Assembly (NCBI GenBank): GCA_018266175.1
Contig: JAFEAY010000003.1
Coordinates: 168,642-232,641 of the forward strand
Length of the DNA stretch: 64,000 bases
Direction: 5' to 3'
DNA from: Candidatus Babelota bacterium
GTDB taxonomy: Bacteria > Babelota > Babeliae > Babelales > RVW-14
Below, piece by piece: positions 19,250 through 52,296 of this stretch (within the stretch, counting starts at the first letter, position 1; each line of letters opens with the position of its first letter). Position numbers and translations under genes: made by a program. The notes beneath the pieces were generated by a model. That model did no database searches, was not told the origin of the DNA, and saw only the letters and a list, made by a program, of their open reading frames with translations.

Positions 19250-20257
19250 ATGATCAACCAATCATTATTTTTTATTGCATTTTTTGCTATCACATTTTCT
19301 ACATCAACGATAACACCTCTTTCACTTGTTCACGGCTCATGGAGTGCACAAGGTGAACGAACGAGCCAGCAAGACAGATATGTAAGTAATACGTTTGGTA
19401 TTGAGGATAAACAAGTCTATTGCTTTGGTATTTTCGATGGCCATGGCCAGGTTCGCATGGGACACCTTGTTGCTCAGTATGCACAAAATCACCTACACAA
19501 TGAACTTGCACCAAAAGTAGTGTCACTCTTCCAATCAAACAACTTACACCGCGTACCAGATCTCATTCAAGAATCATTTCAAGAATTTGATAAAGATTTA
19601 AAAAACAAGAATCCTAATTTTACTTTTAATAGCGGAACAACCGCAACAACGATAATGATCATCGAAGATCACTGTATTGTTGCAAACGTTGGTGACTCGC
19701 AAGCGTATCTTCAGGTATCCAATTTAATGGCGCCACAAGTCCTCACAGAAAATCATGTTCTTAATGAAAATTTTTGCAAACAATTTGAGAAATCTGATAC
19801 TACTTATTTAGAAAAAAGAGTTACTACAGAAATCTTTTACCAAGACTTTCCATTTAATCAAGAAAATTGCATCCGAAGAATCCATCACAATACTTACATT
19901 GTTGCTCAATACGATAATGAGAGAGGAGCCTATGAAAGCTTATTAAATTTGTCACGAACTCTTGGCGACTCACTCTTTTTCCCGCACGTAACGGCTCTTC
20001 CATTCGTACAAAACTTCTCTTTAACGCCAGAGCACCAGTTTATTATCATTGCAAGTGATGGCTTGTGGGATAATATGACCGGCAAAGCAGCAACAAATTT
20101 TGTACTAGCCTACCTTCAAGAAAATGATATGAATATACAGACAATAACACCTGACCAGGCACAAACCATAGCACAAGCACTTGTAGACGCATCACTTACA
20201 ATCAGCAAGCACGATAATACAACTGCAACCATTATCTTTTTTCAACACACTCCATAA
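19250..20257 (+). CDS. PP2C-family Ser/Thr protein phosphatase with N-terminal signal peptide
   Basis: PP2C motifs in order: RTSQQDRY, FGIFDGHG, SGTTAT, VANVGDSQAY, IIASDGLWD, DNTTATIIF. Hydrophobic N-terminus MINQSLFFIAFFAITFSTS. Confidence 0.8.
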   Translation: MINQSLFFIAFFAITFSTSTITPLSLVHGSWSAQGERTSQQDRYVSNTFGIEDKQVYCFGIFDGHGQVRMGHLVAQYAQNHLHNELAPKVVSLFQSNNLHRVPDLIQESFQEFDKDLKNKNPNFTFNSGTTATTIMIIEDHCIVANVGDSQAYLQVSNLMAPQVLTENHVLNENFCKQFEKSDTTYLEKRVTTEIFYQDFPFNQENCIRRIHHNTYIVAQYDNERGAYESLLNLSRTLGDSLFFPHVTALPFVQNFSLTPEHQFIIIASDGLWDNMTGKAATNFVLAYLQENDMNIQTITPDQAQTIAQALVDASLTISKHDNTTATIIFFQHTP

Positions 20258-31080: not shown

Positions 31081-31610
31081 CAAAAGCTTAAAAGCGCAAT
31101 TATTTGGCTTAAAAGACTTTTTTGTTTTTCAACCATATTTTCACGGCCCTCAAAGAGCAAAATGCCGTGGTTACCGTGCCGCGTATTCCACATGCAACAT
31201 GATGGGTTATTCAAGCCAAGCGTTTTGCCCAAATTTACTAATCCTTCTTGGCTGCATTGGTCATGGTTACGAGTAATACTTGCATGGTTAAACTGCTTTA
31301 TTTGTTGATGAAACTGCCCACTGGACATATCGTGTGCAAACGAATAAGGATCTTGCCAAACATCAGCTTTGTGCAGGCTGCATTCATCCTTGCAAAAACC
31401 GGCAACTCCTCTGAGTGAGTCAAAGTCTGGATTGTCGACAAGGTACACTGCTTTGTTGAGTCCAAAATGCGAATCATGGCCTAATTCATGTAATATCAAC
31501 GGTGAAAGCTCATCAACTTCATGAAGCTGCAAAATACGTTGCGGCAGCCCGACTAGACTGTTGAGTAACGTTTGATCATGATTAATTTCATCATGATTAA
31601 TTTTCTTCAT
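31077..31610 (-). CDS. Hypothetical protein (177 aa), no recognised domain
   Basis: ORF with a 4-nt convergent overlap with the upstream gene. His/Cys-rich, no signal peptide. Confidence 0.45.
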   Translation of the reverse strand: MKKINHDEINHDQTLLNSLVGLPQRILQLHEVDELSPLILHELGHDSHFGLNKAVYLVDNPDFDSLRGVAGFCKDECSLHKADVWQDPYSFAHDMSSGQFHQQIKQFNHASITRNHDQCSQEGLVNLGKTLGLNNPSCCMWNTRHGNHGILLFEGRENMVEKQKSLLSQIIALLSFC

Positions 31611-31781
31611 GGAATGCCCTCTCCTTTGTTATCCCTTTTTTTTTCGCTTTCTATTTTTTACCATACCCCTTTTTATTCGGTACGACAAGAAAGCGAAAAA
31701 TCTGGCGCAAGGAGATATTTTCCTTACGCCAGATTTAAAAGTATCACAAGTAAGAGTATGAATTATAGTTACAACTATTTA

Positions 31782-33089
31782 TTACTCGGTGTCCATTGCA
31801 ACAACATCTTGATGAACAACCAGAGGATATTCTACCTGGGCAATACCGACATCGATAATTTCCTGAGAAATTCCTGCCTCACGTGCCACGGAAATGAAAG
31901 CATCTTTTGTAACCTGACCCGTAACAACAAATTGTTGGTAGGCTTCTACAAGCTTATTGATTGCCAGTTCTTTGACAATCTCTGGTTTAACAGCATAACC
32001 AGGCTGACTCAATGTGCCATCAAATGCCGCCTCTGAGCGAAAACTCATAAAAATTCCTTGCAAATCTTCAAGTGCTTCTCCCCTTAAATACTCAGGATAA
32101 TCTGGATGAATCCAGCCGTTTTTACCACGAAAATCCATTCCAAACCGTATTCGCGTTTCTCCAAGTTGAATGAGAGTATCTCGAACTTCATTGCCAAGAA
32201 TTTTATTAAGCGCGATAACCGCTTCTTCCAAACGGCCAACATATTCCCAATCAGTTGCACATTGCTCAAGAACTTTGCACTGTATAGCAACAGCTCCAAG
32301 CGGTTGAGTGAGTAAAGTTCGTGCTTTAAGCAACCCAAGGTCTTCCTTAAGAAAAAGATTAATAATATCTTCTGCAATGGGTTTTTTTGTCTCACAATAA
32401 TGCTTATAATGCTTATAATTTTTTTTACTATCAGGGACATAACCCGAGTCGTGAAATGTCAAACAATACTCTTTGCCTAATTGAGCCTCATCTGAATCAG
32501 ACTCATAAGCAGTAAGTACCGCTGTTACCCAGTGAAACGTACCAACCTGTTTTTCATCACGAGCATCTCCCGTGTTAATAATAAAAGCTTGAGGTTGTTT
32601 ATCGGCTTGAAATTTTTCTATACGTGCCAATAACGCAAGACTTAATCCATGGCCTTGCGCTAATTGAGAAATTTGATTCTTTGAAGCAAAAACGGTAACG
32701 TTATTGGCTGCTTGCACACCATCTGCTACTTGTTCAGCATGAGATGCTGGCAATAAATCTGTTCGAACCAAATTATGAACTAACAAATCAAGCTCTTCAA
32801 CCTGTAAGTTATCAATAGATTGCGCAAGACGGCTTTGACGAACTATGACTTCCCAGCCCTTAAGATATTCCTTAAACAGATCTGCATTACGACGATTATC
32901 TTTCCCAAGAGTTAGGCTGCACAATGCGTTCCACAATGCGTAGTATGCGCAATGAAGACCGTGACCTCTTTGATCCGCTTGTTTCAAGCTAGCTCTAACC
33001 TCTGTATCAATAACTGGTGATGCAAAAAGTGCATTGCTCGCAAGAGCAAAAACTAGCGCAAGAGCAAGAAATTTACTTATTTTATTCAT
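31782..33089 (-). CDS. Exported papain-like Cys-His-Asp protein, paralogue 1 (putative deubiquitinase-like peptidase)
   Basis: Signal peptide FLALALVFALASNALFA. Conserved blocks shared with the paralogue: GHGLHCAYYALWNALC (candidate nucleophile), VGTFHWVTAVL (His) and LTFHDSGYVP (Asp). C-terminal module LAINKLVEAYQQFVVTGQVTKDAFISVAREAGISQEIIDVGIAQVE. Confidence 0.6.
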   Translation of the reverse strand: MNKISKFLALALVFALASNALFASPVIDTEVRASLKQADQRGHGLHCAYYALWNALCSLTLGKDNRRNADLFKEYLKGWEVIVRQSRLAQSIDNLQVEELDLLVHNLVRTDLLPASHAEQVADGVQAANNVTVFASKNQISQLAQGHGLSLALLARIEKFQADKQPQAFIINTGDARDEKQVGTFHWVTAVLTAYESDSDEAQLGKEYCLTFHDSGYVPDSKKNYKHYKHYCETKKPIAEDIINLFLKEDLGLLKARTLLTQPLGAVAIQCKVLEQCATDWEYVGRLEEAVIALNKILGNEVRDTLIQLGETRIRFGMDFRGKNGWIHPDYPEYLRGEALEDLQGIFMSFRSEAAFDGTLSQPGYAVKPEIVKELAINKLVEAYQQFVVTGQVTKDAFISVAREAGISQEIIDVGIAQVEYPLVVHQDVVAMDTE

Positions 33090-33118
33090 AATATATTCTC
33101 CGATTTATACAATTACTC

Positions 33119-34582
33119 TTAATCAGTAATAACGTTAATGTTATTGATCACTAAAGGATCTTCAACTTGAGCAATGCCAGCATCGATAATTTCATGAGAA
33201 ATTCCGGCCTCATGAGCAACTTGAATGAAAGCATCTTGTGTAACCTGACCAGTAACAACAAAATCTCCATACGTTTTTGCAAGTTTATTGATTGCAAGTT
33301 GTCGCGCACATGCTTGAAGCGTGCCAATATGCACATTAAGCTCTTCAAATTGTGTCCAATTGGGATCAAGAAAAAGGCTCTTTAGTTGAGCTTGCATCAC
33401 AGGAATAGTTTTACGACGAAGAAACTTTGCATAATCATTATTGTCTATTCGTTTCGCACGGCGTAAAGCCATTTTTGCATTCAATTCATTAAATCTGTCA
33501 GGAGCTGCTGCTCTAATGCAACAACGCACATAATCTTCAAGAAAATAAATGTACTCATCAGAATAAACATCACAACTCCAAAGTAAAATATCGTTAGAAG
33601 CATTGCTTATCTCTGCATATTGATCTGAATATACTTTTACTGCATGAAGCTGTGGGGTAAGCAAGCTTCGAGCGGTCAGCAGATCAAGATTTTCTTCAAC
33701 AAAAAGCGCGTGAATACTGTTTCCCATAGGAATTAATGATTTACAGTATTGATCAAAATCCTTTTTATTCTCACGACTTCGAGGAACATAACCTGAATCA
33801 TAAAATTTTAGTTCATAAGCAAATTCTTCAGTTGGTGCAGAATGAGGAGTAAGAACAGCCGCTATCCAGTGAAATGTACCAACCTGTCTTTCATCACGAG
33901 CGCTTCCTGTGTTGATAATAAAAGCTTGAGGCTGACTATCGGCTCGAAATTTTCTGATACGATCTAACAATGCAGGAGTCAATCCATGGCCAGTAGCTAA
34001 TTGAGCTATCTGATTCTTTGAAGCAAAAACGGTAACGTTACTCGCTGCTTGCACACCATCTGTTACTTGTTCAGCATGAGATACTGGCAATAAAGTATCC
34101 TGTACAAGACGATTAACTAATAGATCAAGCTCTTCAACCTGTAAATTATTAACTTCACTCGGTAAAATTGGCCCCCTGAATATGTTCACAAAACAAGCTT
34201 CTTGCGGAGCACGTCTTTGAAAAACAATATTCTCCCAAGTCTCAAGATGTTTGTTAAAATCTTCTCGATGAGTATTTTCACCTTGAAAATCAGGATTCAC
34301 ACCACATAACGCATTCCACAATGCGTAATATCCGCAGTGAAGGCCATGACCTTCGTAAGAGGCTTGCTTTAAGCTTGAATTACACCCCATCTGAGTGCCA
34401 TTCACCTCAATTTTTGGCTGCTTTACGTCGTCACGAACATCAACATCGCTCCGCGATCGCTTGCGCGAAGCTTTTTTGCCTGCTTGGCCATCTTGACCAT
34501 GCTCAGACTCCATAGAAAAGAGAGCATTACTCTGCGCAAAGAGCATCACCATAACAACAAAAAAATTACATACTTTATTCAT
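33119..34582 (-). CDS. Exported papain-like Cys-His-Asp protein, paralogue 2
   Basis: Start at the ATG at 34582 (GGAGG upstream). MNKVCNFFVVMVMLFAQSNALFS, HGLHCGYYALWNALCG, VGTFHWIAAVL, KFYDSGYVP. The C-terminal module is nearly identical to paralogue 1. Only 29 nt separate the two genes. Confidence 0.6.
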   Translation of the reverse strand: MNKVCNFFVVMVMLFAQSNALFSMESEHGQDGQAGKKASRKRSRSDVDVRDDVKQPKIEVNGTQMGCNSSLKQASYEGHGLHCGYYALWNALCGVNPDFQGENTHREDFNKHLETWENIVFQRRAPQEACFVNIFRGPILPSEVNNLQVEELDLLVNRLVQDTLLPVSHAEQVTDGVQAASNVTVFASKNQIAQLATGHGLTPALLDRIRKFRADSQPQAFIINTGSARDERQVGTFHWIAAVLTPHSAPTEEFAYELKFYDSGYVPRSRENKKDFDQYCKSLIPMGNSIHALFVEENLDLLTARSLLTPQLHAVKVYSDQYAEISNASNDILLWSCDVYSDEYIYFLEDYVRCCIRAAAPDRFNELNAKMALRRAKRIDNNDYAKFLRRKTIPVMQAQLKSLFLDPNWTQFEELNVHIGTLQACARQLAINKLAKTYGDFVVTGQVTQDAFIQVAHEAGISHEIIDAGIAQVEDPLVINNINVITD

Positions 34583-34654
34583 GATAAACCTCCACAAGTT
34601 CAGAATTATAACCTGACCTAGTTTACCACGCCCAAAACATGTTTTCAAATGGCA

Positions 34655-39704: not shown

Positions 39705-40189
39705 TTAAAAATTCCTTTCGTGAAAAATCCTTGCATTTGCACAACAGATCCTGCTACCTTCAATGTATCTAACAATGTAACATAGCTCCTTGAGCAACAA
39801 AACAGTCTTATACCACCCTAAGAAAAAAAACTTGATATCTGCCCGCATGTTCGCTAACCTATCAGCGTTGTTATAGTCGATGCGCCTGATAAGCGCGATA
39901 GATTGAAATGAAATACACGGTCAACACACTGCAAATTGGTTGGTATTAGTAAGTAACAACAACAAAAGAAGAGAGGAAAGGAGGCTGGAACACACAAGTA
40001 TCTTGAAGCTGATGATCAATCATTTAAAAATATTCACGGCATTTTGCCTATCTCCTGTACACACTGACGCTGCTACAGTCACACTTCATCACAGACGCAC
40101 ATAATTTTCTGTACCTTGTCCTTGTTTTTATGGCAGGAGGGTAACGCAAAATGCACACGTTTAAAGCTGAAATTTGTGGAGAAAAGAGT

Positions 40190-41665
40190 ATGAATAAAGT
40201 AATCAAGGGCTTATTAGTTGCGATGCTCGCAGTAAGCGCAACAGTTCAAGCAAGCACAAACAAAACATTTTTATTGCCTCGTTCACATGGCGTCAACCTT
40301 CCAATGGAATTGAGCACATTTAACCAGCTCGTTCATCGTAAAGCGGCCGATAAATTTGGCGCTAATTTTCAAGCAGTAGGCTTTTTTAGCCGTACAGCAG
40401 ATGAAGAGGATACTGGAAAATATTTTGGTATTAAAAACAAAAACACATTTGCTTTACAAAAGGCAGCAATAGTTGGTGCCGCATCAACAACCGATGCAGA
40501 TCTTGGCTTCTTTGTTCACGAATTTGATAATGCAACCATCGGTAATGGCACCAATGCAAGCGTGAACTTACACCCAAAACAAGAAGCATGGGGCGTTCGC
40601 TTTGACTATTTTCAAGATTTAGAAAAAATCGTTAAAGGTCTTTACCTCAAAGCAACCGTGCCTGTTGTTCATGTTGAAAACAATGTTGAACTTAAGGTCA
40701 CAAGCCCTGTTGCAGCTGCACAAACAGGACTCCAAAACTTCTTGCAAGGTAAAGCAACCGGCATTGCTGGAGCTGAAAATGTCCAAGTAGCTCTTGATCA
40801 CATGAAGATGGATGGCAAGAACGACTCAACCGGTGTTGCAGACATCGACGTTGTGCTTGGCTACAACTTCTTGAACAAAGATTGTCACCATGTTGGCATT
40901 AACATCGGTTTCACCATCCCAACCGGTGATGAAGCTGACAGCGTGCACGCTTTTGAAGCAATTGTTGGTAACGGCAATCACTGGGCATTTGGTGCTGGCT
41001 TAGATGCAATGTTCCGTGCATGGGGTAATGAAGATCACAACGTTAAAGTAACCGCTGCGCTTAACTACCGTTATATGTTCAAAGAATCAGAAAAACGCAC
41101 CATGGGACTCAAAGATGTTCCAGGATTTGCTGCAGGATCAGTTGACTGGGGACACTATGTGTTGCTTGCACAATTTGATAAACCAATTGCAAATGGAGTA
41201 ACACCAGCTGCAAACGTCACAACATTTAATGTTGATGTTACCCCTGGTAGCCAACTTGATGGCGTTATTGCACTTGCTTACAACAACGGCGGCTTGTGTG
41301 TAGACTTTGGTTATAACCTCTTCTGGAAAGATGACGAAGAAGTTAAGCTCAAAGCTGCTGACATTACAGCTATCGATGCAGCCAAATACGGAGTTGCTAT
41401 TAGAAACTTTAATGCAACAACACCCGGAAACGTTACAGCTGGTAGTCTTTTAAATGGAGCTACACTCACCTCCAAAAACATCGATACCCATGCAGCCCAA
41501 ACAGGTTCACAAGTTACGCATAAAATCTTTGCGGCACTTGGCTACATGTTCACAGAATGGGAATGCCCACTCATGCTCGGTGCTGGTGGCGGCTACGAAT
41601 TCCGTGGCTCAAACGATGCACTTGAAAAATGGGAACTCTGGCTTAAGCTTGGCATTGGATTCTAA
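40190..41665 (+). CDS. Outer-membrane beta-barrel protein, paralogue 1 (family not named)
   Basis: Start at the ATG at 40190 (GGAGAA upstream). Signal peptide LLVAMLAVSATVQA. Shares NKTFL.PRS.GVNLP, YGNGNHWAFGAGLDA and FGYNLFWKD with the ORFs at 43753 and 50821. Ends in an aromatic residue (LKLGIGF), as is typical of beta-barrel OMPs. Confidence 0.65.
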   Translation: MNKVIKGLLVAMLAVSATVQASTNKTFLLPRSHGVNLPMELSTFNQLVHRKAADKFGANFQAVGFFSRTADEEDTGKYFGIKNKNTFALQKAAIVGAASTTDADLGFFVHEFDNATIGNGTNASVNLHPKQEAWGVRFDYFQDLEKIVKGLYLKATVPVVHVENNVELKVTSPVAAAQTGLQNFLQGKATGIAGAENVQVALDHMKMDGKNDSTGVADIDVVLGYNFLNKDCHHVGINIGFTIPTGDEADSVHAFEAIVGNGNHWAFGAGLDAMFRAWGNEDHNVKVTAALNYRYMFKESEKRTMGLKDVPGFAAGSVDWGHYVLLAQFDKPIANGVTPAANVTTFNVDVTPGSQLDGVIALAYNNGGLCVDFGYNLFWKDDEEVKLKAADITAIDAAKYGVAIRNFNATTPGNVTAGSLLNGATLTSKNIDTHAAQTGSQVTHKIFAALGYMFTEWECPLMLGAGGGYEFRGSNDALEKWELWLKLGIGF

Positions 41666-43752: not shown

Positions 43753-45159
43753 ATGAAAAAGAGCCCTTGGATAGTCCAAGCACTGCTAATCGTTGCACTC
43801 ACCACACCGATGCTAAACGCATCAAACGATTCTCATAGCAAAAAAACATTTTTATCAACTCGCCCATCAGGCGTTAACTTGCCACTTGAATACACCATCT
43901 GGCATGACCATGTCTACCGCAAAAAAGCAAAAACCAACCACACCAGCCTGCAATTTGCCGGCTTTTATCAAGAGTCAAACAAAGGCGAAGGCCAAGGAAA
44001 ATATTTTGGTATTGGCAACGGAACGAATAAATTTACGATTGGACCAGCCGGTGCCGGTATAGATCTTGATAAAAGGTTTCTTGTACATGGCGCAAAAAAT
44101 CTTGCAGGAACCGTATCGCTCACACCAAAAGTAGAAAGTTTTGGCTGCTTGGTACAACTGTTCCAAGACTTTGACTTACCATTTGGTTCTATTTTTATCA
44201 CGGCAAGCCTACCGTTTGCACATGTCAGTCGCAACATGGATCTTCAAGTTGCTAACGGAAGCACCGACTTTTCAGTTGAAGACTTCTTTGCTGGGCGCGT
44301 TGAGCAAACCGCAGCTGCAGACTTGCAAGCGGCACTTACGCACGCCAAAATCGACGGACGCCGCAGCGCCACCGGCCTTGCTGACGCCGACCTTCAAGTT
44401 GGTTTTCGGGTGGTCGACAAAGCAGCGCACCACGTTTACCTCAACATCGGCCTCACCATCCCTGCGGGCAACCGTGTACGCGGCGAATATCTCTTTGAGC
44501 CCGTTTACGGCAACGGCAGCCACACCGCGCTGGGCTTTGGCCTTGATGCAGGCGTTGATGCATGGAAAAATGATCACGCAAAACTGCGTGCACTTTTTGC
44601 AGCTGACTACCGCTATCTCTTTGAAGGAACCGAGCACCGCACTGTGGGCATCAAAGGCAAACCGCTCAACCACTACTTTTTGGCAGCACACTTGGGCCAA
44701 AAAGACAAAGCTCTCTTCCCAGCTGCAAATGAGCTGACACAAGCACTGCGCATCAAGCCAGGTTCACAGATGGAAATGATGGCGATGCTCAGCTTTTTGA
44801 GCAGCCGCTTTGTCATTGATGCGGGGTACAATTTGTTCTGGAAAGATCAAGAGTCGGCGTGGGTTAAGCGCTGGAAAGATAACGACTTCTATATCGCAAA
44901 GACTACTTACAATACAAACGCTATAAATGCATTTGCAGCAACAGATGGCACTGTTGTCAACCTGGTCGACCTTGACATCGACGCGGTCAAAACGCCGTCA
45001 CTCTTCACCCACAAGCTGTTCGCCGGCTTGGGGTACACCTGCATGGTCACCCGCACCTTTCCATTAAGCCTTGGCTTTGGTGCTGACTACGAATTTGCAG
45101 TGACCAATGCTGACATAGAACAATGGGGTGTCTGGTTTAAACTTGCTGGATCATTCTAA
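43753..45159 (+). CDS. Outer-membrane beta-barrel protein, paralogue 2
   Basis: Signal peptide ALLIVALTTPMLNA, KKTFLSTRPSGVNLPLEY, YGNGSHTALGFGLDAG, AGYNLFWKD, C-terminal FKLAGSF. Confidence 0.65.
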   Translation: MKKSPWIVQALLIVALTTPMLNASNDSHSKKTFLSTRPSGVNLPLEYTIWHDHVYRKKAKTNHTSLQFAGFYQESNKGEGQGKYFGIGNGTNKFTIGPAGAGIDLDKRFLVHGAKNLAGTVSLTPKVESFGCLVQLFQDFDLPFGSIFITASLPFAHVSRNMDLQVANGSTDFSVEDFFAGRVEQTAAADLQAALTHAKIDGRRSATGLADADLQVGFRVVDKAAHHVYLNIGLTIPAGNRVRGEYLFEPVYGNGSHTALGFGLDAGVDAWKNDHAKLRALFAADYRYLFEGTEHRTVGIKGKPLNHYFLAAHLGQKDKALFPAANELTQALRIKPGSQMEMMAMLSFLSSRFVIDAGYNLFWKDQESAWVKRWKDNDFYIAKTTYNTNAINAFAATDGTVVNLVDLDIDAVKTPSLFTHKLFAGLGYTCMVTRTFPLSLGFGADYEFAVTNADIEQWGVWFKLAGSF

Positions 45160-45271: not shown

Positions 45272-45378
45272 AACATAAATCATCAAAATCCTCGCCCGTG
45301 CGGGGATTTTTTTATTTATGCTATACTTGTCAGTATAAAAAAATATCGTTTCACCTCTTTCCCGAAAGAGTGCAAAAC

Positions 45379-47070
45379 ATGAAAATGCTTCCAATCGGTT
45401 TTAGTGATTATAAAGAACTCATTGATGGAAACTTTTATTACGTTGATAAAACATTATTGATCGATGAGCTCTACCACAGAGGTGGCAAGGTCACCCTGGT
45501 CCCTCGACCTCGACGATTTGGCAAAACATTAAATCTTTCAATGCTCAAATATTTTTTTGAAAAAACGGCAAGATCAAACGCCTATCTTTTTGAAGATAAA
45601 AAAATCTGGGGCATTCCCAAGATGGTCCAATTGCAGGGGAAATTTCCTATTATTTTTGTCACGTTTAAAGACATCAAAGAGAGTACCTGGGACGTAAGCA
45701 GAAGCAAGCTTGTTGGAATAATTTCACAAGAATATGCTCGACACAGCTACTTGCTTGATTCAGATCTGCTGAGCGATCACGAAAAAGATATTTTCAAAAA
45801 CATTTGTACAAAAACCGCAACGACCGCAGAGTACCACAATAGCCTTTTAAATCTTTCTCAATTTTTAGAACGCTACCATCAGGCAAAAACGATTGTTTTG
45901 ATTGATGAATACGATTCTCCCATTCACGCAGGATATCTCAACAATTATTATTCGGAGATTATTGAATTTACCAGAGGATTGCTGTGCGCCGTACTCAAAG
46001 ATAACTCCAGTCTTGAACGAGGCGTTGTGACCGGCATTTTGCGCACCGCCAAAGAGGGGATCTTTTCGGGGCTCAATAACCTCAAAATTTTCACGCTTTT
46101 AGATGAACAATTAGCCGATAAATTTGGATTTACAGAAAAAGAGATTGAACAACTACTTCACAATTACAACCTTGAGTCGATTGCGCCAGAATTTAAATCT
46201 TGGTATAACGGATACTTGATTGGAAAAACGAAAATCTATAACCCCTGGTCGGCCCTTAATTGTGCGGATAGATCAGGTGACCTCATTCCCTACTGGGCAA
46301 ACACCAGTGACAATGGGCTCATTAAAAAAATCATTGCAACTTCCACAACCGATATTCAAGATTCCTGCGCTGAGCTTCTACACGGCAACGCCGTTCCAAA
46401 TATCGAAATTAACGACAAAATGGTGCTTCCTGGAATGATTAATGACTCAGATTCAATCTGGTCACTCCTTCTTTTTAGCGGGTATATCACCATCAATCAA
46501 TGCGTTCTGAATGCAAAAGGGAAGTTCATCTGCTCGTTGGTATTGCCAAACAGAGAACTCAATTCACTCTTTGATGATCTGGTTACTGCACTCTTCAAAG
46601 AAGGCTTGGAGCATAAAAATATTATCGCCCTTGGGCATGCACTGCGTGACGCTGATGGTGAGCTTTTTAGCATACTGCTTTCAAAATTTATGATACAGAG
46701 CATCAGCTGCCATGATCTGCATGACACTGAGCCGGAAAAGAGCTATCATCTTTTTGTTCTTGGTATGCTTGTTGTCTACTCAGAAAGCTATACCGTCCGA
46801 TCGAATCGGGAAAGCGGCTATGGTCGATTTGATATCATGCTCATCCCGCATGACAAAAATCGACCAGGAATTGTCATAGAGTTCAAGAAAAAAGACGATA
46901 AGGAAACCATGGACCAGTGTGCTAATCGTGCACTCAAGCAAATTAAAGAAAAACACTATGCAACAGAATTGCGCAGCCAAGGAATCGACAAGATCGCCTT
47001 TTTTGGTATCGCCTGTCACAACAAAGAGGTCCTCCTCAAGCAGGAAAACGAGGACAAAGAGCACGCTTAA
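45379..47070 (+). CDS. AAA-ATPase-like domain protein with C-terminal PD-(D/E)XK nuclease domain
   Basis: Start at the ATG at 45379. N-terminal signature LPIGFSDYKELIDGNFYYVDKTLLIDEL...LVPRPRRFGKTLNLSMLKYFF. C-terminal ESGYGRFDIMLIP...GIVIEFKKK (E, D, ExK). Confidence 0.75.
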   Translation: MKMLPIGFSDYKELIDGNFYYVDKTLLIDELYHRGGKVTLVPRPRRFGKTLNLSMLKYFFEKTARSNAYLFEDKKIWGIPKMVQLQGKFPIIFVTFKDIKESTWDVSRSKLVGIISQEYARHSYLLDSDLLSDHEKDIFKNICTKTATTAEYHNSLLNLSQFLERYHQAKTIVLIDEYDSPIHAGYLNNYYSEIIEFTRGLLCAVLKDNSSLERGVVTGILRTAKEGIFSGLNNLKIFTLLDEQLADKFGFTEKEIEQLLHNYNLESIAPEFKSWYNGYLIGKTKIYNPWSALNCADRSGDLIPYWANTSDNGLIKKIIATSTTDIQDSCAELLHGNAVPNIEINDKMVLPGMINDSDSIWSLLLFSGYITINQCVLNAKGKFICSLVLPNRELNSLFDDLVTALFKEGLEHKNIIALGHALRDADGELFSILLSKFMIQSISCHDLHDTEPEKSYHLFVLGMLVVYSESYTVRSNRESGYGRFDIMLIPHDKNRPGIVIEFKKKDDKETMDQCANRALKQIKEKHYATELRSQGIDKIAFFGIACHNKEVLLKQENEDKEHA

Positions 47071-47185
47071 AAGTAACGTTGCTGGTTAACTTCAACTCAA
47101 AATACAATTTTTGCGATCACCAAAATATGCTATACTTAGCCCAACGTATATAACACACCCCCTAACAACCTGCTAGGAGTGCTCA

Positions 47186-48097
47186 ATGGTATTTCTTGAC
47201 CCCCGCAACGATGTTGCATTCAAAAAAATATTCGGATCAGAAGATCACAAAAATATCACCATCTCATTTCTCAACTCCATCTTAGAATACACGGGCGATC
47301 GAGCAATTAAAAGCATCACCTTCATGAACACCGAACAGCTTGAAATTGTTCGCCTCAAAAAAGAGAACGTCCTTGATATCATGTGTGTTGACCATGCCGG
47401 CAGCCAATTCATTGTCGAGATGCAGGTTGAAAACGTTAAAGAGTTTGGCAAACGCATGGTCTATTACGGCGCAAAAACCTACACCATTCAGCTCAGCAAG
47501 GGTAAACCTTACTACAAACTCACCCCCGTTATTGTGATAGCAATCACCAACTTCATCATGTTCCCAGACAAAAAAGATTACAAATCAATCCATCACCTTG
47601 CAGATACCAAAACAGGTGAAAACGACCTCAAAGAGCTGTACTTTGCTTTTGTCGAACTCCCTAAATTTAAGAAAAAAGAATCTGAGCTTAAATCTGCCGA
47701 AGATAAATGGATCTATTTTATCAAGACGATGAAAAAGCAAACCGAAATTCCAGCCCCTCTTGCCCGAGGTGAATTTGAAGATGCGTGCCATATGGCACAG
47801 CGTGCCGCTTGGTCTGAAGATGAACTCAACGCTTATGATGATGCATTTGTCAAAGCAACCGATGCTCAAACATCTGCAGAACTGGCTGAAGAAAAAGGAC
47901 TAGAACGCGGTCTTAAAAAAGGCTTAGAACAGGGCTTAGAACAGGGCTTAGAACAGGGCTTAGAACAGGGCTTAGAACAGGGCAAAGCTAAAACCCAACG
48001 CGAAATGGCTCGAAAGTTACTTTCCAAAATGAGCATTGCTGATATTTCAGAACTTACCGGCTTATCAATTGAAGAAATTGAGGCGCTCAAAGATTAA
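47186..48097 (+). CDS. Rpn/YhgA-like PD-(D/E)XK recombination-promoting nuclease / putative transposase
   Basis: N-terminal LDPRNDVAFKKIFGSEDHKNITISFLNSIL. Nuclease core LDIMCVDHAGSQFIVEMQV. C-terminal (GLEQ)5 repeat. Confidence 0.75.
   Translation: MVFLDPRNDVAFKKIFGSEDHKNITISFLNSILEYTGDRAIKSITFMNTEQLEIVRLKKENVLDIMCVDHAGSQFIVEMQVENVKEFGKRMVYYGAKTYTIQLSKGKPYYKLTPVIVIAITNFIMFPDKKDYKSIHHLADTKTGENDLKELYFAFVELPKFKKKESELKSAEDKWIYFIKTMKKQTEIPAPLARGEFEDACHMAQRAAWSEDELNAYDDAFVKATDAQTSAELAEEKGLERGLKKGLEQGLEQGLEQGLEQGLEQGKAKTQREMARKLLSKMSIADISELTGLSIEEIEALKD
47921..47980 (+). repeat. 12-bp tandem repeat x5 (ggcttagaacag) encoding (GLEQ)5
   Basis: Read directly. Preceded by two degenerate units (GLER, GLKK). 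Confidence 0.95.
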
Positions 48098-50820: not shown

Positions 50821-52296
50821 ATGATGAAAACAAACCTCATTGCGCTACGCCGCATAACCTTCCTAGCCCTGGCACTGACCGCCAGCACGGCACTGCTGGC
50901 CGACGGCGACGCCAGCAACAAAACCTTCTTGTCACCACGCTCGCCAAGCGTGAACATGGCGCACAAGTACACCACATGGGCTGACCATGTGTATGGCAAG
51001 CGCTGCGGCAAGGCACAGACCAGCTTTCAGCTGACTGGATTCTTTTCGGAATCGGAAAAGGGGAAAGATTTAGGGAACTATTTTGGTATTGGGAATAAGA
51101 GCAACAGCTTTACGGTTGGCCCAACAACTGCGCCTGGTGAAATCAATACAGATTTCTTAATGCATGATTTTGCAGGAATTGGAAATGCTTCTGGCACTAT
51201 CACCCTTGCTCCACGCCAAGAAGCCTGGGGCGCACGCTTAGACTTCTTTCAAGACCTTCATTTCCGATTTGGAAAATTCTTTATTGCAGCCACTCTCCCT
51301 ATCGTTCATGTACAACAAAACATGCGCATCCAAACAACCGATGGTTTGCCAACTCGAGCTATTGGCGGCACACAATTTACCCTTGAAGATTTTTTCAGTG
51401 GAAAATTTGAAAACGCTGATCCTGCTGATGCTGAAAATAAACAATCAGCACTGACTAAAGCAAAAATTGGTGGCAGCCATTCAGAAACAGGCGTTGCTGA
51501 CATCGAACTTGAACTTGGCTGGAAAGCACTTGAAAGCAAAAAGTGCCATATTTTCTTAAACCTTGGCTTCACCATTCCAACCAGCAACAAGGCTGATGGC
51601 GAATTTTTGTTTGAGCCGATCTATGGCAACGGCGACCACTTCGCCTTTGGTGGCGGCATTGATGCTGGCGTAACCTTGTGGTGCAAAGATAAGAACAAAG
51701 TCCGCTTGCTTCTTGCTGGAGACTACCGTTTCTTATTTGACAATACACAAAAGCGTACGCTGGGAGTTATGGACGATGTCGGCGTACCACAGAGATTTGG
51801 TCATTATGCTGCAGGCTATAAACTTCTCCAGGATCCAGGAACCCCACTTTTTCCACTAGCAAATGTATTAACACAAAATGTTGGCGTTGAACCGGGTAGT
51901 CAAATTGATGCACTTGCAGCACTTTCGTTCAACTTCTGCCGCTTAACTTTTGATGCTGGTTATAACCTCTTCTGGAGAGATAAAGAATCAGTCAAAGTAA
52001 AAGCTTGGGAAGATGGAGTTTACTACCAAGCTAGCATTCTTCGCGATGCAACTGATGCTTTTACTCTTGTTAATGCAGGTCTTGACACTCCTATCAATCG
52101 TAAAAATTTAAACATCGCGGCAGCAGCAACACCATCACTCCTTTCTCATAAAATATTTGGTAGCTTGGCTTACTCAGGCAAAATTAAAAATCAGTATCCA
52201 TGCAGCTTTGGTGTAGGCGGATCGTATGAGTTTGCTGATACCAACGCGGACCTTGAAAATTGGAGCGCTTGGATTAAAGCAATTCTCTCATTCTAA
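50821..52296 (+). CDS. Outer-membrane beta-barrel protein, paralogue 3
   Basis: Signal peptide ITFLALALTASTALLA, NKTFLSPRSPSVNMAHKY, YGNGDHFAFGGGIDAG, AGYNLFWRD, C-terminal IKAILSF. AGGAGA precedes the ATG. Confidence 0.65.
   Translation: MMKTNLIALRRITFLALALTASTALLADGDASNKTFLSPRSPSVNMAHKYTTWADHVYGKRCGKAQTSFQLTGFFSESEKGKDLGNYFGIGNKSNSFTVGPTTAPGEINTDFLMHDFAGIGNASGTITLAPRQEAWGARLDFFQDLHFRFGKFFIAATLPIVHVQQNMRIQTTDGLPTRAIGGTQFTLEDFFSGKFENADPADAENKQSALTKAKIGGSHSETGVADIELELGWKALESKKCHIFLNLGFTIPTSNKADGEFLFEPIYGNGDHFAFGGGIDAGVTLWCKDKNKVRLLLAGDYRFLFDNTQKRTLGVMDDVGVPQRFGHYAAGYKLLQDPGTPLFPLANVLTQNVGVEPGSQIDALAALSFNFCRLTFDAGYNLFWRDKESVKVKAWEDGVYYQASILRDATDAFTLVNAGLDTPINRKNLNIAAAATPSLLSHKIFGSLAYSGKIKNQYPCSFGVGGSYEFADTNADLENWSAWIKAILSF

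Follow-up and report, generated by a model that had tools for sequence, protein, structure and literature searches.

What do two adjacent genes without annotated function, here designated A and B, encode in a genome of Candidatus Dependentiae? The genes lie in a 64,000-nucleotide stretch (hereafter the window) of contig JAFEAY010000003.1, which belongs to a metagenome-assembled genome of this group of protist parasites. A preliminary description of the window had presented them as tandem exported paralogues and, from the resemblance of short motifs, as candidate deubiquitinases (DUBs) of the Josephin or USP class. The reading that we favour, with moderate confidence, is that A and B are exported papain-fold cysteine peptidases that represent circularly permuted relatives of the Ulp1/SENP proteases of clan CE, and that they probably serve as host-directed isopeptidases acting on ubiquitin or ubiquitin-like modifiers (UBLs). 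That they are active enzymes, what they cleave, how they are exported and whether some of them enter the nucleus are inferences from the sequences and the predicted models. The coordinates of all features are listed in Table 1.

The coordinates of the open reading frames (ORFs) bear out the earlier account of two neighbouring genes separated by a 29-nt spacer (33090-33118). Gene B had been listed as an ORF of 509 aa (33119-34648, minus strand) opening with a TTG codon at 34648; the ATG at 34582, which is internal to this ORF and agrees with the start given previously, is located 7 nt downstream of a GGAGG Shine-Dalgarno sequence and yields a protein of 487 aa. Judged by a full-length BLASTP similarity far above chance (42% identity, E 1e-113), A and B are paralogues, as had been claimed. 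Gene A is the more divergent of the two; its linker is short, and its middle region differs from that of B. Its product is identical to the family member P0001, i.e. NCBI 'hypothetical protein JST56_00875, Candidatus Dependentiae bacterium', and that of gene B is near-identical to P0002. A profile hidden Markov model (HMM) applied to all ORFs in the window identified two copies of the domain, namely those of A and B. The ORF at 40151-41665 was considered as a third copy from a marginal tblastn match (E 0.057) and was dropped, as it lacked support from the family HMM.

Three sequence blocks, GHGLHC(A/G)YYALWNALC (residues 42-57 of A), VGTFHW(V/I)(T/A)AVL and F(H/Y)DSGYVP, are present in both proteins in this order. 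They had been described before, and only the first position of the third block, given as '(F/Y)', was too loose, because Phe is found in both proteins. The blocks contain Cys47, His186 and Asp214 in A and Cys83, His238 and Asp262 in B, respectively. Conservation was assessed by aligning the catalytic regions of 19 members, using the numbering of A (19-33 members in the wider set). Gln37, Cys47 and His186 are invariant or nearly so and are candidates for the oxyanion-hole residue, the nucleophile and the general base, respectively. Position 214 is occupied by Asp, with Asn in two of the 19 members, an alternation that is also seen for the third residue of the triad in papain-fold enzymes. Ser215 is likewise invariant or nearly so, as are Tyr49, Ala51, Trp79, Asn94, Glu99 and Asn172, and the spacing between the His and the Asp ranges from 19 to 28 residues in the family. 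The residue following His186 is aromatic in all 19 aligned active members (15 HW, 2 HY and 2 HF). This His-[FYW] motif contacts Gly75 of ubiquitin and shows a 477-fold enrichment among DUBs and Gly-Gly UBL proteases, and the proportion found here exceeds the >90% of members that defines the gatekeeper criterion (Hermanns et al. 2020, PMC7391069).

The full-length AlphaFold2 (AF2) model, built with only seven sequences, was mediocre (pLDDT 64.5), and its Foldseek search was swamped by spurious all-helical alignments to TolC/OprM. When the domain alone was modelled (A residues 36-250, 21-sequence alignment), a confident alpha+beta prediction was obtained (pLDDT 87.1, pTM 0.86). In this model, Cys47 opens a 19-residue helix; three helices and then a strand-helix-helix-strand arrangement are predicted, after which His186 starts the next strand, Asp214 ends the following strand, and a long helix closes the domain. 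The best-supported Foldseek match of the domain model in the PDB was SENP8/NEDP1 (2bkq; E 1.3e-2, probability 0.80). HopZ1a (5klp; probability 0.69, and 0.69-0.72 across models) and RavZ were also among the best matches, and the highest-probability matches all belong to clan CE with the full-length and domain models alike. The top 50 PDB matches included no Josephin, USP, UCH, OTU or other Cys-first DUB, and no similarity to the solved Josephins (1YZB, 3O65, 6PGV, 9FN4, 9G7G and 9F5T) appeared among them; the human Josephins were confirmed to be present in the PDB sequence copy, and the bacterial 9F5T, 9FN4 and 9G7G were not confirmed in the copy that was searched. The Foldseek comparison that had been proposed as a check of the Josephin/USP assignment yielded no strong match, and the best-supported ones were of clan CE instead.

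Sequence profiles gave a corresponding result once a change in the order of the catalytic segments was allowed. For hhalign, family profiles were built from retrieved homologues; the SENP8 query was 99% identical to the database SENP8, the ataxin-3 query matched 1YZB (E 5e-123), and PDB alignments supplied the NopD and Ulp1 sequences. In the permuted form of the A/B family profile, the N-terminal Cys segment was placed behind the rest of the domain. Against SENP8, the native order gave a probability of 22-24% (E 8e-4 to 9e-4) over 36-38 columns that covered HW...YDS only, whereas the permuted form gave 86.2% (E 4.9e-6) over 85 columns, with His, Asp and Cys each aligned with its counterpart and "GHGLHCGYYALWN--ALC" standing opposite "QNSYDCGMYVICNTEALC". 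Against a combined SENP8, NopD and Ulp1 profile, the native order gave 11% (E 2.8e-3) over 58 columns, beginning with the helix that precedes the FIINTG strand and including His and Asp, and the permuted form 89.3% (E 2.1e-6) over 126 columns; here His, Asp and Cys were again aligned, and the alignment began with the same helix and reached the conserved Trp in the helix after the Cys. Shifting the cut point between residues 25 and 90 did not alter the permuted result. In 200 trials with the columns of the moved segment shuffled, scores stayed below the real value of 44.1 throughout (mean 30.6, sd 1.8, maximum 42.9). Against the Josephin profile, in contrast, both the native and the permuted forms gave 0.8% (E 0.07) over 17-43 columns, in a stretch that ends at HW and includes neither the Cys nor the Asp.

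Foldseek and hhalign are two independent kinds of evidence, and both point to clan CE rather than to Josephin or USP and imply a permutation relative to Ulp1/SENP. In the native order, no PF02902 match was found and the hhalign probabilities were only 11-24%; furthermore, the family order is (Gln)-Cys-His-Asp, whereas that of clan CE is His-Asp/Glu-(Gln)-Cys. For these reasons, the family was filed as a permuted relative and not as a member of C48. With permutation allowed, the profiles provide moderate support for homology of all three catalytic segments to Ulp1/SENP, and structural and profile similarity together make the affinity to clan CE moderately well supported, not conclusive.

The likeness to the Ulp1/SENP group (C48, PF02902; SENP8/NEDP1/DEN1, Ulp1, NopD, XopD and ChlaDUB) extends to details. 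A strand, an N-containing loop, an HW strand and a (Y/F)(Y/H)DS strand are common to both ('FIINTG...GTFHW...FHDSG' in the family and 'FLAINDN...GGTHW...FHYDS' in SENP8), and the Cys helix of the type Q...x-C-G-aromatic matches as well ('GHGLHCGYYALWNALC' in the family and 'QNSYDCGMYVICNTEALC' in SENP8). Both groups possess the gatekeeper Trp, and the bacterial CE members are secreted effectors. The two groups differ in that the order is Cys-His-Asp in the family and His-Asp-Cys in Ulp1/SENP, the Cys helix and the next helix being N-terminal in the family. The family also has a longer His-to-Asp loop, no Pfam match, a Sec signal peptide in place of the type III or type IV secretion signal of the bacterial CE effectors, and its own helical C-terminal extension of about 180 aa with a three-helix module. 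The clan CE itself is regarded as a circularly permuted papain fold (PMC7391069), and circular permutation is known from bacterial OTUs, namely EmcB/CoxDUB, in which re-permuted EmcB stays active (PMC12501173), and others (Schubert et al. 2020, PMC7396840). These OTUs represent the same kind of event, in which the Cys helix was relocated in effectors of intracellular bacteria and the active site was preserved. However, their parent fold is OTU, their Cys helix was shifted to the C-terminal end, and they are Dot/Icm substrates whose activity has been demonstrated. In the present family, the parent fold would be that of Ulp/CE, and the Cys helix is at the N-terminus.

Both A and B begin with MNK, followed by a hydrophobic run of 10-12 residues and then by SNA and LF. 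By this n-h-c layout, which was read from the sequence, and by the conserved site between SNA and LF, they look like proteins with Sec-type signal peptides, in agreement with the preliminary description; a similar N-terminus is present in most family members. In Chromulinavorax destructans, a cultivated member of Dependentiae, signal peptides are encoded by 44% of coding sequences, and putative effectors that are secreted predominate, perhaps in association with outer-membrane vesicles (PMC6561590), so effectors with signal peptides appear to be normal in this group. In the linker that precedes its catalytic domain, gene B encodes a basic cluster that resembles a nuclear localisation signal (NLS). 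In nine relatives (P0004-P0009, P0011, P0012 and P0027), a bipartite basic motif, KR-x9-13-KKxK, is located immediately after the signal peptide, e.g. KRKRQDHTDNTEAPREKKRK in P0004; several other members have a basic cluster at the linker, but it is lacking in gene A. The bipartite motif agrees with the classical NLS consensus of this type and would suit a nuclear enzyme directed at SUMO or NEDD8.

The C-terminal module, which had been described as a nearly identical segment of about 50 aa, is real and more conserved than the remainder of the proteins; its degree of identity had been overstated, being 67% over 61-63 aa, compared with 42% for the whole proteins. Its three helices are predicted with pLDDT values of 86-91, and the module is conserved as far as the distant members. 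No match to it was found in Pfam or the PDB, and a UBA-like ubiquitin-binding role is pure speculation.

In total, six relatives were found by a word-indexed search of 5.8 billion proteins and 31 when 1.84 billion cluster representatives were searched exhaustively with a profile, ten of the latter at E<=1e-30. The 20 distant members that were looked up by cluster are all known from metagenomes only. Relatives were not found in 185,579 GTDB species (one genome each) or in the viral contigs of IMG/VR. Searches of Pfam returned nothing relevant for any of the 33 family members, A and B had no NCBIfam match, and phmmer and profile hmmsearch against PDB sequences gave noise only (the designed protein NF6, globins and Mediator). 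The literature search revealed no account of a Cys-first CE-like family. The A/B family is small and fast-evolving and has so far been found only in a Dependentiae genome and metagenome contigs. Among viral structures, Foldseek detected no adenain- or I7-type match and a single uncharacterised protein of Klosneuvirus KNV1 (BFVD A0A1V0SIK4, 626 aa; E 4.4e-3, probability 0.85, 272 columns). A shared origin of this protein and the family in amoeba-associated gene pools is possible.

The family genes occupy a fixed site in the order BacA-FtsK-MurF-family-p177-heparinase II/III-like-TrpRS, in which the flanking genes are of the housekeeping type and the MurF side is upstream. Three related loci were compared, with divergence measured against the genes of the window, which has two copies (B and A). 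Locus L003 has one copy (P0003; 66% identity to B and 42% to A), and its MurF, TrpRS and p177 are 94, 96 and 97% identical, respectively. L001 has three copies (P0007, P0006 and P0008) with 30-40% identity in the family and 72-88% in the flanks, and L006 has two (P0016 and P0033) with 24-31% and 33-68%, respectively. Family genes are only 66 or 42% identical where flanking genes are 86-97% identical. The p177 gene, which is always located immediately downstream of the protease gene or genes, shows 88-97% identity where the proteases show 30-66%. P0008 (L001 9711-12527, 938 aa) is a fusion of three domain copies, in which the Cys is replaced in all three (LLGYDALW, LDSGYYALW and LYDGYYALW) and the His is lost in two; it is likely a pseudo-protease or decoy. 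The joint loss of both residues fits the idea that they act together. Changes in copy number, pseudo-enzymes and fast divergence at a fixed site are expected of host-driven selection, under which we would place these genes from the sequence comparison.

Several points weigh against an assignment of A and B to permuted Ulp1/SENP-like isopeptidases. The structural match to clan CE is weak (E about 1e-2, TM 0.24-0.31) and partial, covering 100-166 columns; the permuted hhalign probability remained below 90%, and the permutation was chosen after the motifs had been seen; and neither A and B nor any of the 33 members matches PF02902 in Pfam. The gatekeeper motif is also retained in CE acetyltransferases (PMC7391069). 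The basic linkers may be just compositional, and a Sec signal peptide by itself does not take a protein into the host cytosol or nucleus.

The Josephin or USP class (clan CA), perhaps in the form of distant relatives of the bacterial Josephin-like DUBs and ubiquitin C-terminal clippases (SnJOS1/2, PcJOS, BpJOS and PaJOS; Hermanns et al. 2024, bioRxiv 10.1101/2024.07.24.604956), now appears very unlikely. The Josephins (C86; ataxin-3, JOSD1/2 and the bacterial enzymes) have a papain fold, the order Cys-His-Asp/Asn and HW as in the family (HW...(D/N)S; C14/H119/N134 in ataxin-3, C162/H284/D300 in PcJOS and C66/H187/D203 in PaJOS); the bacterial Josephins likewise occur in intracellular bacteria of amoebae (Simkania and Parachlamydia), and the predicted succession of Cys helix, helical arm, sheet, His strand, Asp strand and helix would be compatible with a Josephin. 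The order is shared but not diagnostic, and because the family's local pattern is also present in Josephins (there HWF...NLNS), the resemblance noted in the preliminary description cannot tell them from clan CE. No similarity to Josephins was detected by sequence, profile or Foldseek, although a homologue with the same order should align over its full length: PF02099 was found neither in A and B at E<=1 nor in the 33 members at E<=0.01, no USP or UCH match was obtained in Pfam, and the PDB sequences and the ataxin-3 family profile gave the results described above. The His-Asp spacing is 16 in bacterial Josephins, compared with 19-28 in the family, and a domain of only about 215 aa contrasts with the fingers-palm-thumb structure of about 300-350 aa in USP (PF00443, C19). 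What stands of the earlier interpretation is that A and B are exported paralogues with a conserved Cys...His-aromatic...Asp arrangement, for which a ubiquitin/UBL isopeptidase, beside a RING-type E3 ligase candidate, is the best reading; the Josephin/USP class does not. An acetyltransferase of the YopJ/HopZ/LegCE type, acetylating host proteins, is quite unlikely in our estimation. Clan CE holds both activities, the aromatic residue after the His cannot tell the two apart (lpg1949 has the motif and yet is an acetyltransferase, PMC7391069), and YopJ/HopZ/AvrA (C55) share with the family the CE core, the aromatic residue after the His and a weak Foldseek similarity, HopZ1a being among the best matches. 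However, the best profile similarity is to the proteases SENP8, Ulp1 and NopD, no similarity to YopJ-family profiles was found, in Pfam or otherwise, and the YopJ/HopZ/AvrA order is His-Glu-Cys. The third triad residue in most YopJ-family enzymes is Glu, whereas in the family it is Asp/Asn, as in Ulp/SENP.

We regard it as unlikely that A and B are cysteine peptidases with a non-UBL substrate, either in the periplasm or envelope or as secreted nutritional proteases. The signal peptide predicts export to the periplasm only, the gene is located directly downstream of murF in every genome examined, and Dependentiae secrete many hydrolases. A general envelope function is at odds with the absence of the family from the GTDB genomes, and an envelope role with the promoter-like site and terminator of its own; the gatekeeper aromatic residue and the Ulp/SENP similarity point to Gly-Gly modifiers, and NLS-like linkers would be meaningless outside a eukaryotic cell. 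A housekeeping role tied to murF was rejected on the absence elsewhere, the variable copy number, the divergence several times faster than that of murF, and the terminator- and promoter-like sites; the Cys-less copies also argue against housekeeping. There is, finally, a very small chance that A and B are catalytically dead binders that sequester ubiquitin, UBLs or other host factors. The three Cys-less domains of the syntenic P0008 indicate that the fold is used without catalysis in at least one member, but the Gln, Cys, His-aromatic and Asp/Asn residues are intact in A, B and nearly all other members.

If A and B are permuted relatives of Ulp1/SENP, their mechanism can be modelled after these enzymes. 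The signal peptide would be removed, probably after SNA, and the protein would leave the bacterium and reach the protist host cell, where the bipartite basic motif would send many members to the nucleus; gene B would have a degenerate version of this signal and gene A none. Cys47, at the start of helix 1, would attack the isopeptide or peptide bond that follows the terminal Gly-Gly in ubiquitin or in a UBL, with His186 as the general base, Asp214 orienting His186, an oxyanion hole formed by Gln37 or Gln40, and Trp187 as the gatekeeper packed against the penultimate Gly. The helical middle region and the C-terminal three-helix module probably provide binding of the substrate or modifier, or localisation. 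A wider proposal, which we offer only tentatively, is that the family represents a new 'Cys-first' lineage of the Ulp1/SENP superfamily, either re-permuted or a relic of an unpermuted ancestor linking clan CE to the papain order, and that its members are Sec-exported, often nucleus-targeted effectors that strip the proteins of protist hosts of SUMO, NEDD8 or ubiquitin in an arms race reflected in one to three tandem copies, fast divergence and a triple Cys-less decoy.

If confirmed, the family would represent a new topology of DUBs and UBL proteases, with a clan-CE core in the order Cys-His-Asp, and would extend to a second fold the permutation of DUB folds by bacterial effectors, which has so far been shown for OTUs. 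It would also provide a first handle on the effectors of Dependentiae, which have hardly been studied, and compact ubiquitin/UBL proteases of unusual specificity could be useful as reagents, as the bacterial Josephin clippases have proved to be. For annotation, the family illustrates that order-dependent searches, such as those with Pfam and Foldseek, entirely miss permuted enzymes; it was unannotated in every library tested.

Table 1. Features of the A/B locus and of other genes in the window (positions refer to the window).
Feature	Position	Strand	Remarks
Gene A	31782..33089	-	435 aa; start preceded by GGAGAA
Gene A, putative signal peptide	33021..33089	-	residues 1-23, MNKISKFLALALVFALASNA followed by LFA; read from sequence
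Gene A, predicted catalytic domain	32340..32984	-	residues 36-250; AF2, family conservation, Foldseek, permuted hhalign
Gene A, key codons	Cys47 32949-32951; His186 32532-32534; Asp214 32448-32450	-	also Gln37, Asn172, Trp187, Ser215
Gene A, C-terminal three-helix module	31824..31994	-	residues about 366-422, LAINKL...GISQEIIDVGIAQVE
Gene B	33119..34582	-	487 aa; signal peptide, basic linker, catalytic domain, helical middle, C-terminal module
Gene B, putative signal peptide	34514-34582	-	equivalent to that of A; read from sequence
Gene B, basic cluster KKASRKRSRS	34451..34480	-	residues 35-44, between signal peptide and catalytic domain; regex scan
Gene B, predicted catalytic domain	33689..34369	-	residues 72-298; tblastn with A domain, 56% identity; HMM 248 bits
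Gene B, key codons	Cys83 34334-34336; His238 33869-33871; Asp262 33797-33799	-	also Gln73, Trp239
Gene B, C-terminal module	within 33122-33322	-	equivalent to that of A, by similarity
Sigma-70-like promoter candidate	34620..34648	-	TTGAAA-17-TAAACT with TG; murF-B spacer; consensus scan
Terminator-like hairpin	31698..31736	-	16-bp stem, 7 G-C pairs, T-rich tail; 46 nt past gene A stop
p177	31077-31610	-	177 aa; no Pfam/NCBIfam match; also L001 12764-13297, L003 6010-6543, L006 8042-8590
RING-H2 protein	21670-23043	+	457 aa; CSIC...CNHTFHKAC...CPLC at 22303-22446; Pfam zf-RING_2 E 1.6e-10
PP2C-type Ser/Thr phosphatase	19250-20257	+	PF00481 E 3.8e-33; adjoins mutS; eukaryote-like

The promoter candidate upstream of gene B and the terminator-like hairpin downstream of gene A suggest a separate B-A transcript. 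The number of sigma-70-like sites in the region is not above chance and only the position of this one is suggestive; the two sites hint, rather weakly, at a transcription unit of its own. At its 3' end, p177 shares 4 nt with the convergent heparinase II/III-like gene. The RING-H2 protein, which had been noted previously and was found again with a significant zf-RING_2 match, is encoded about 9 kb from the protease pair; its remainder has no family match, and it is a candidate eukaryote-like E3 ligase. This protein and the PP2C phosphatase form a genomic context of host interaction that speaks for the isopeptidase reading.

At locus L006, a PemK-toxin gene and a small upstream ORF (1305-1876) are located between bacA and ftsK, an insertion that is not present in the window. 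In the window, two adjacent mobile-element-associated ORFs are found at 45298-48097 (plus strand), encoding an AAA-ATPase with a PD-(D/E)XK nuclease (PF09820/PF08011) and a protein of the PD-(D/E)XK transposase family (PF12784, E 7e-55). Six ORFs of 270-504 aa have no Pfam match (40151-41665, 43753-45159, 50821-52296, 20566-21435 and 23308-24234 on the plus strand and 27022-27834 on the minus strand); such sizeable unannotated ORFs agree with the high unannotated share that has been reported for Dependentiae.

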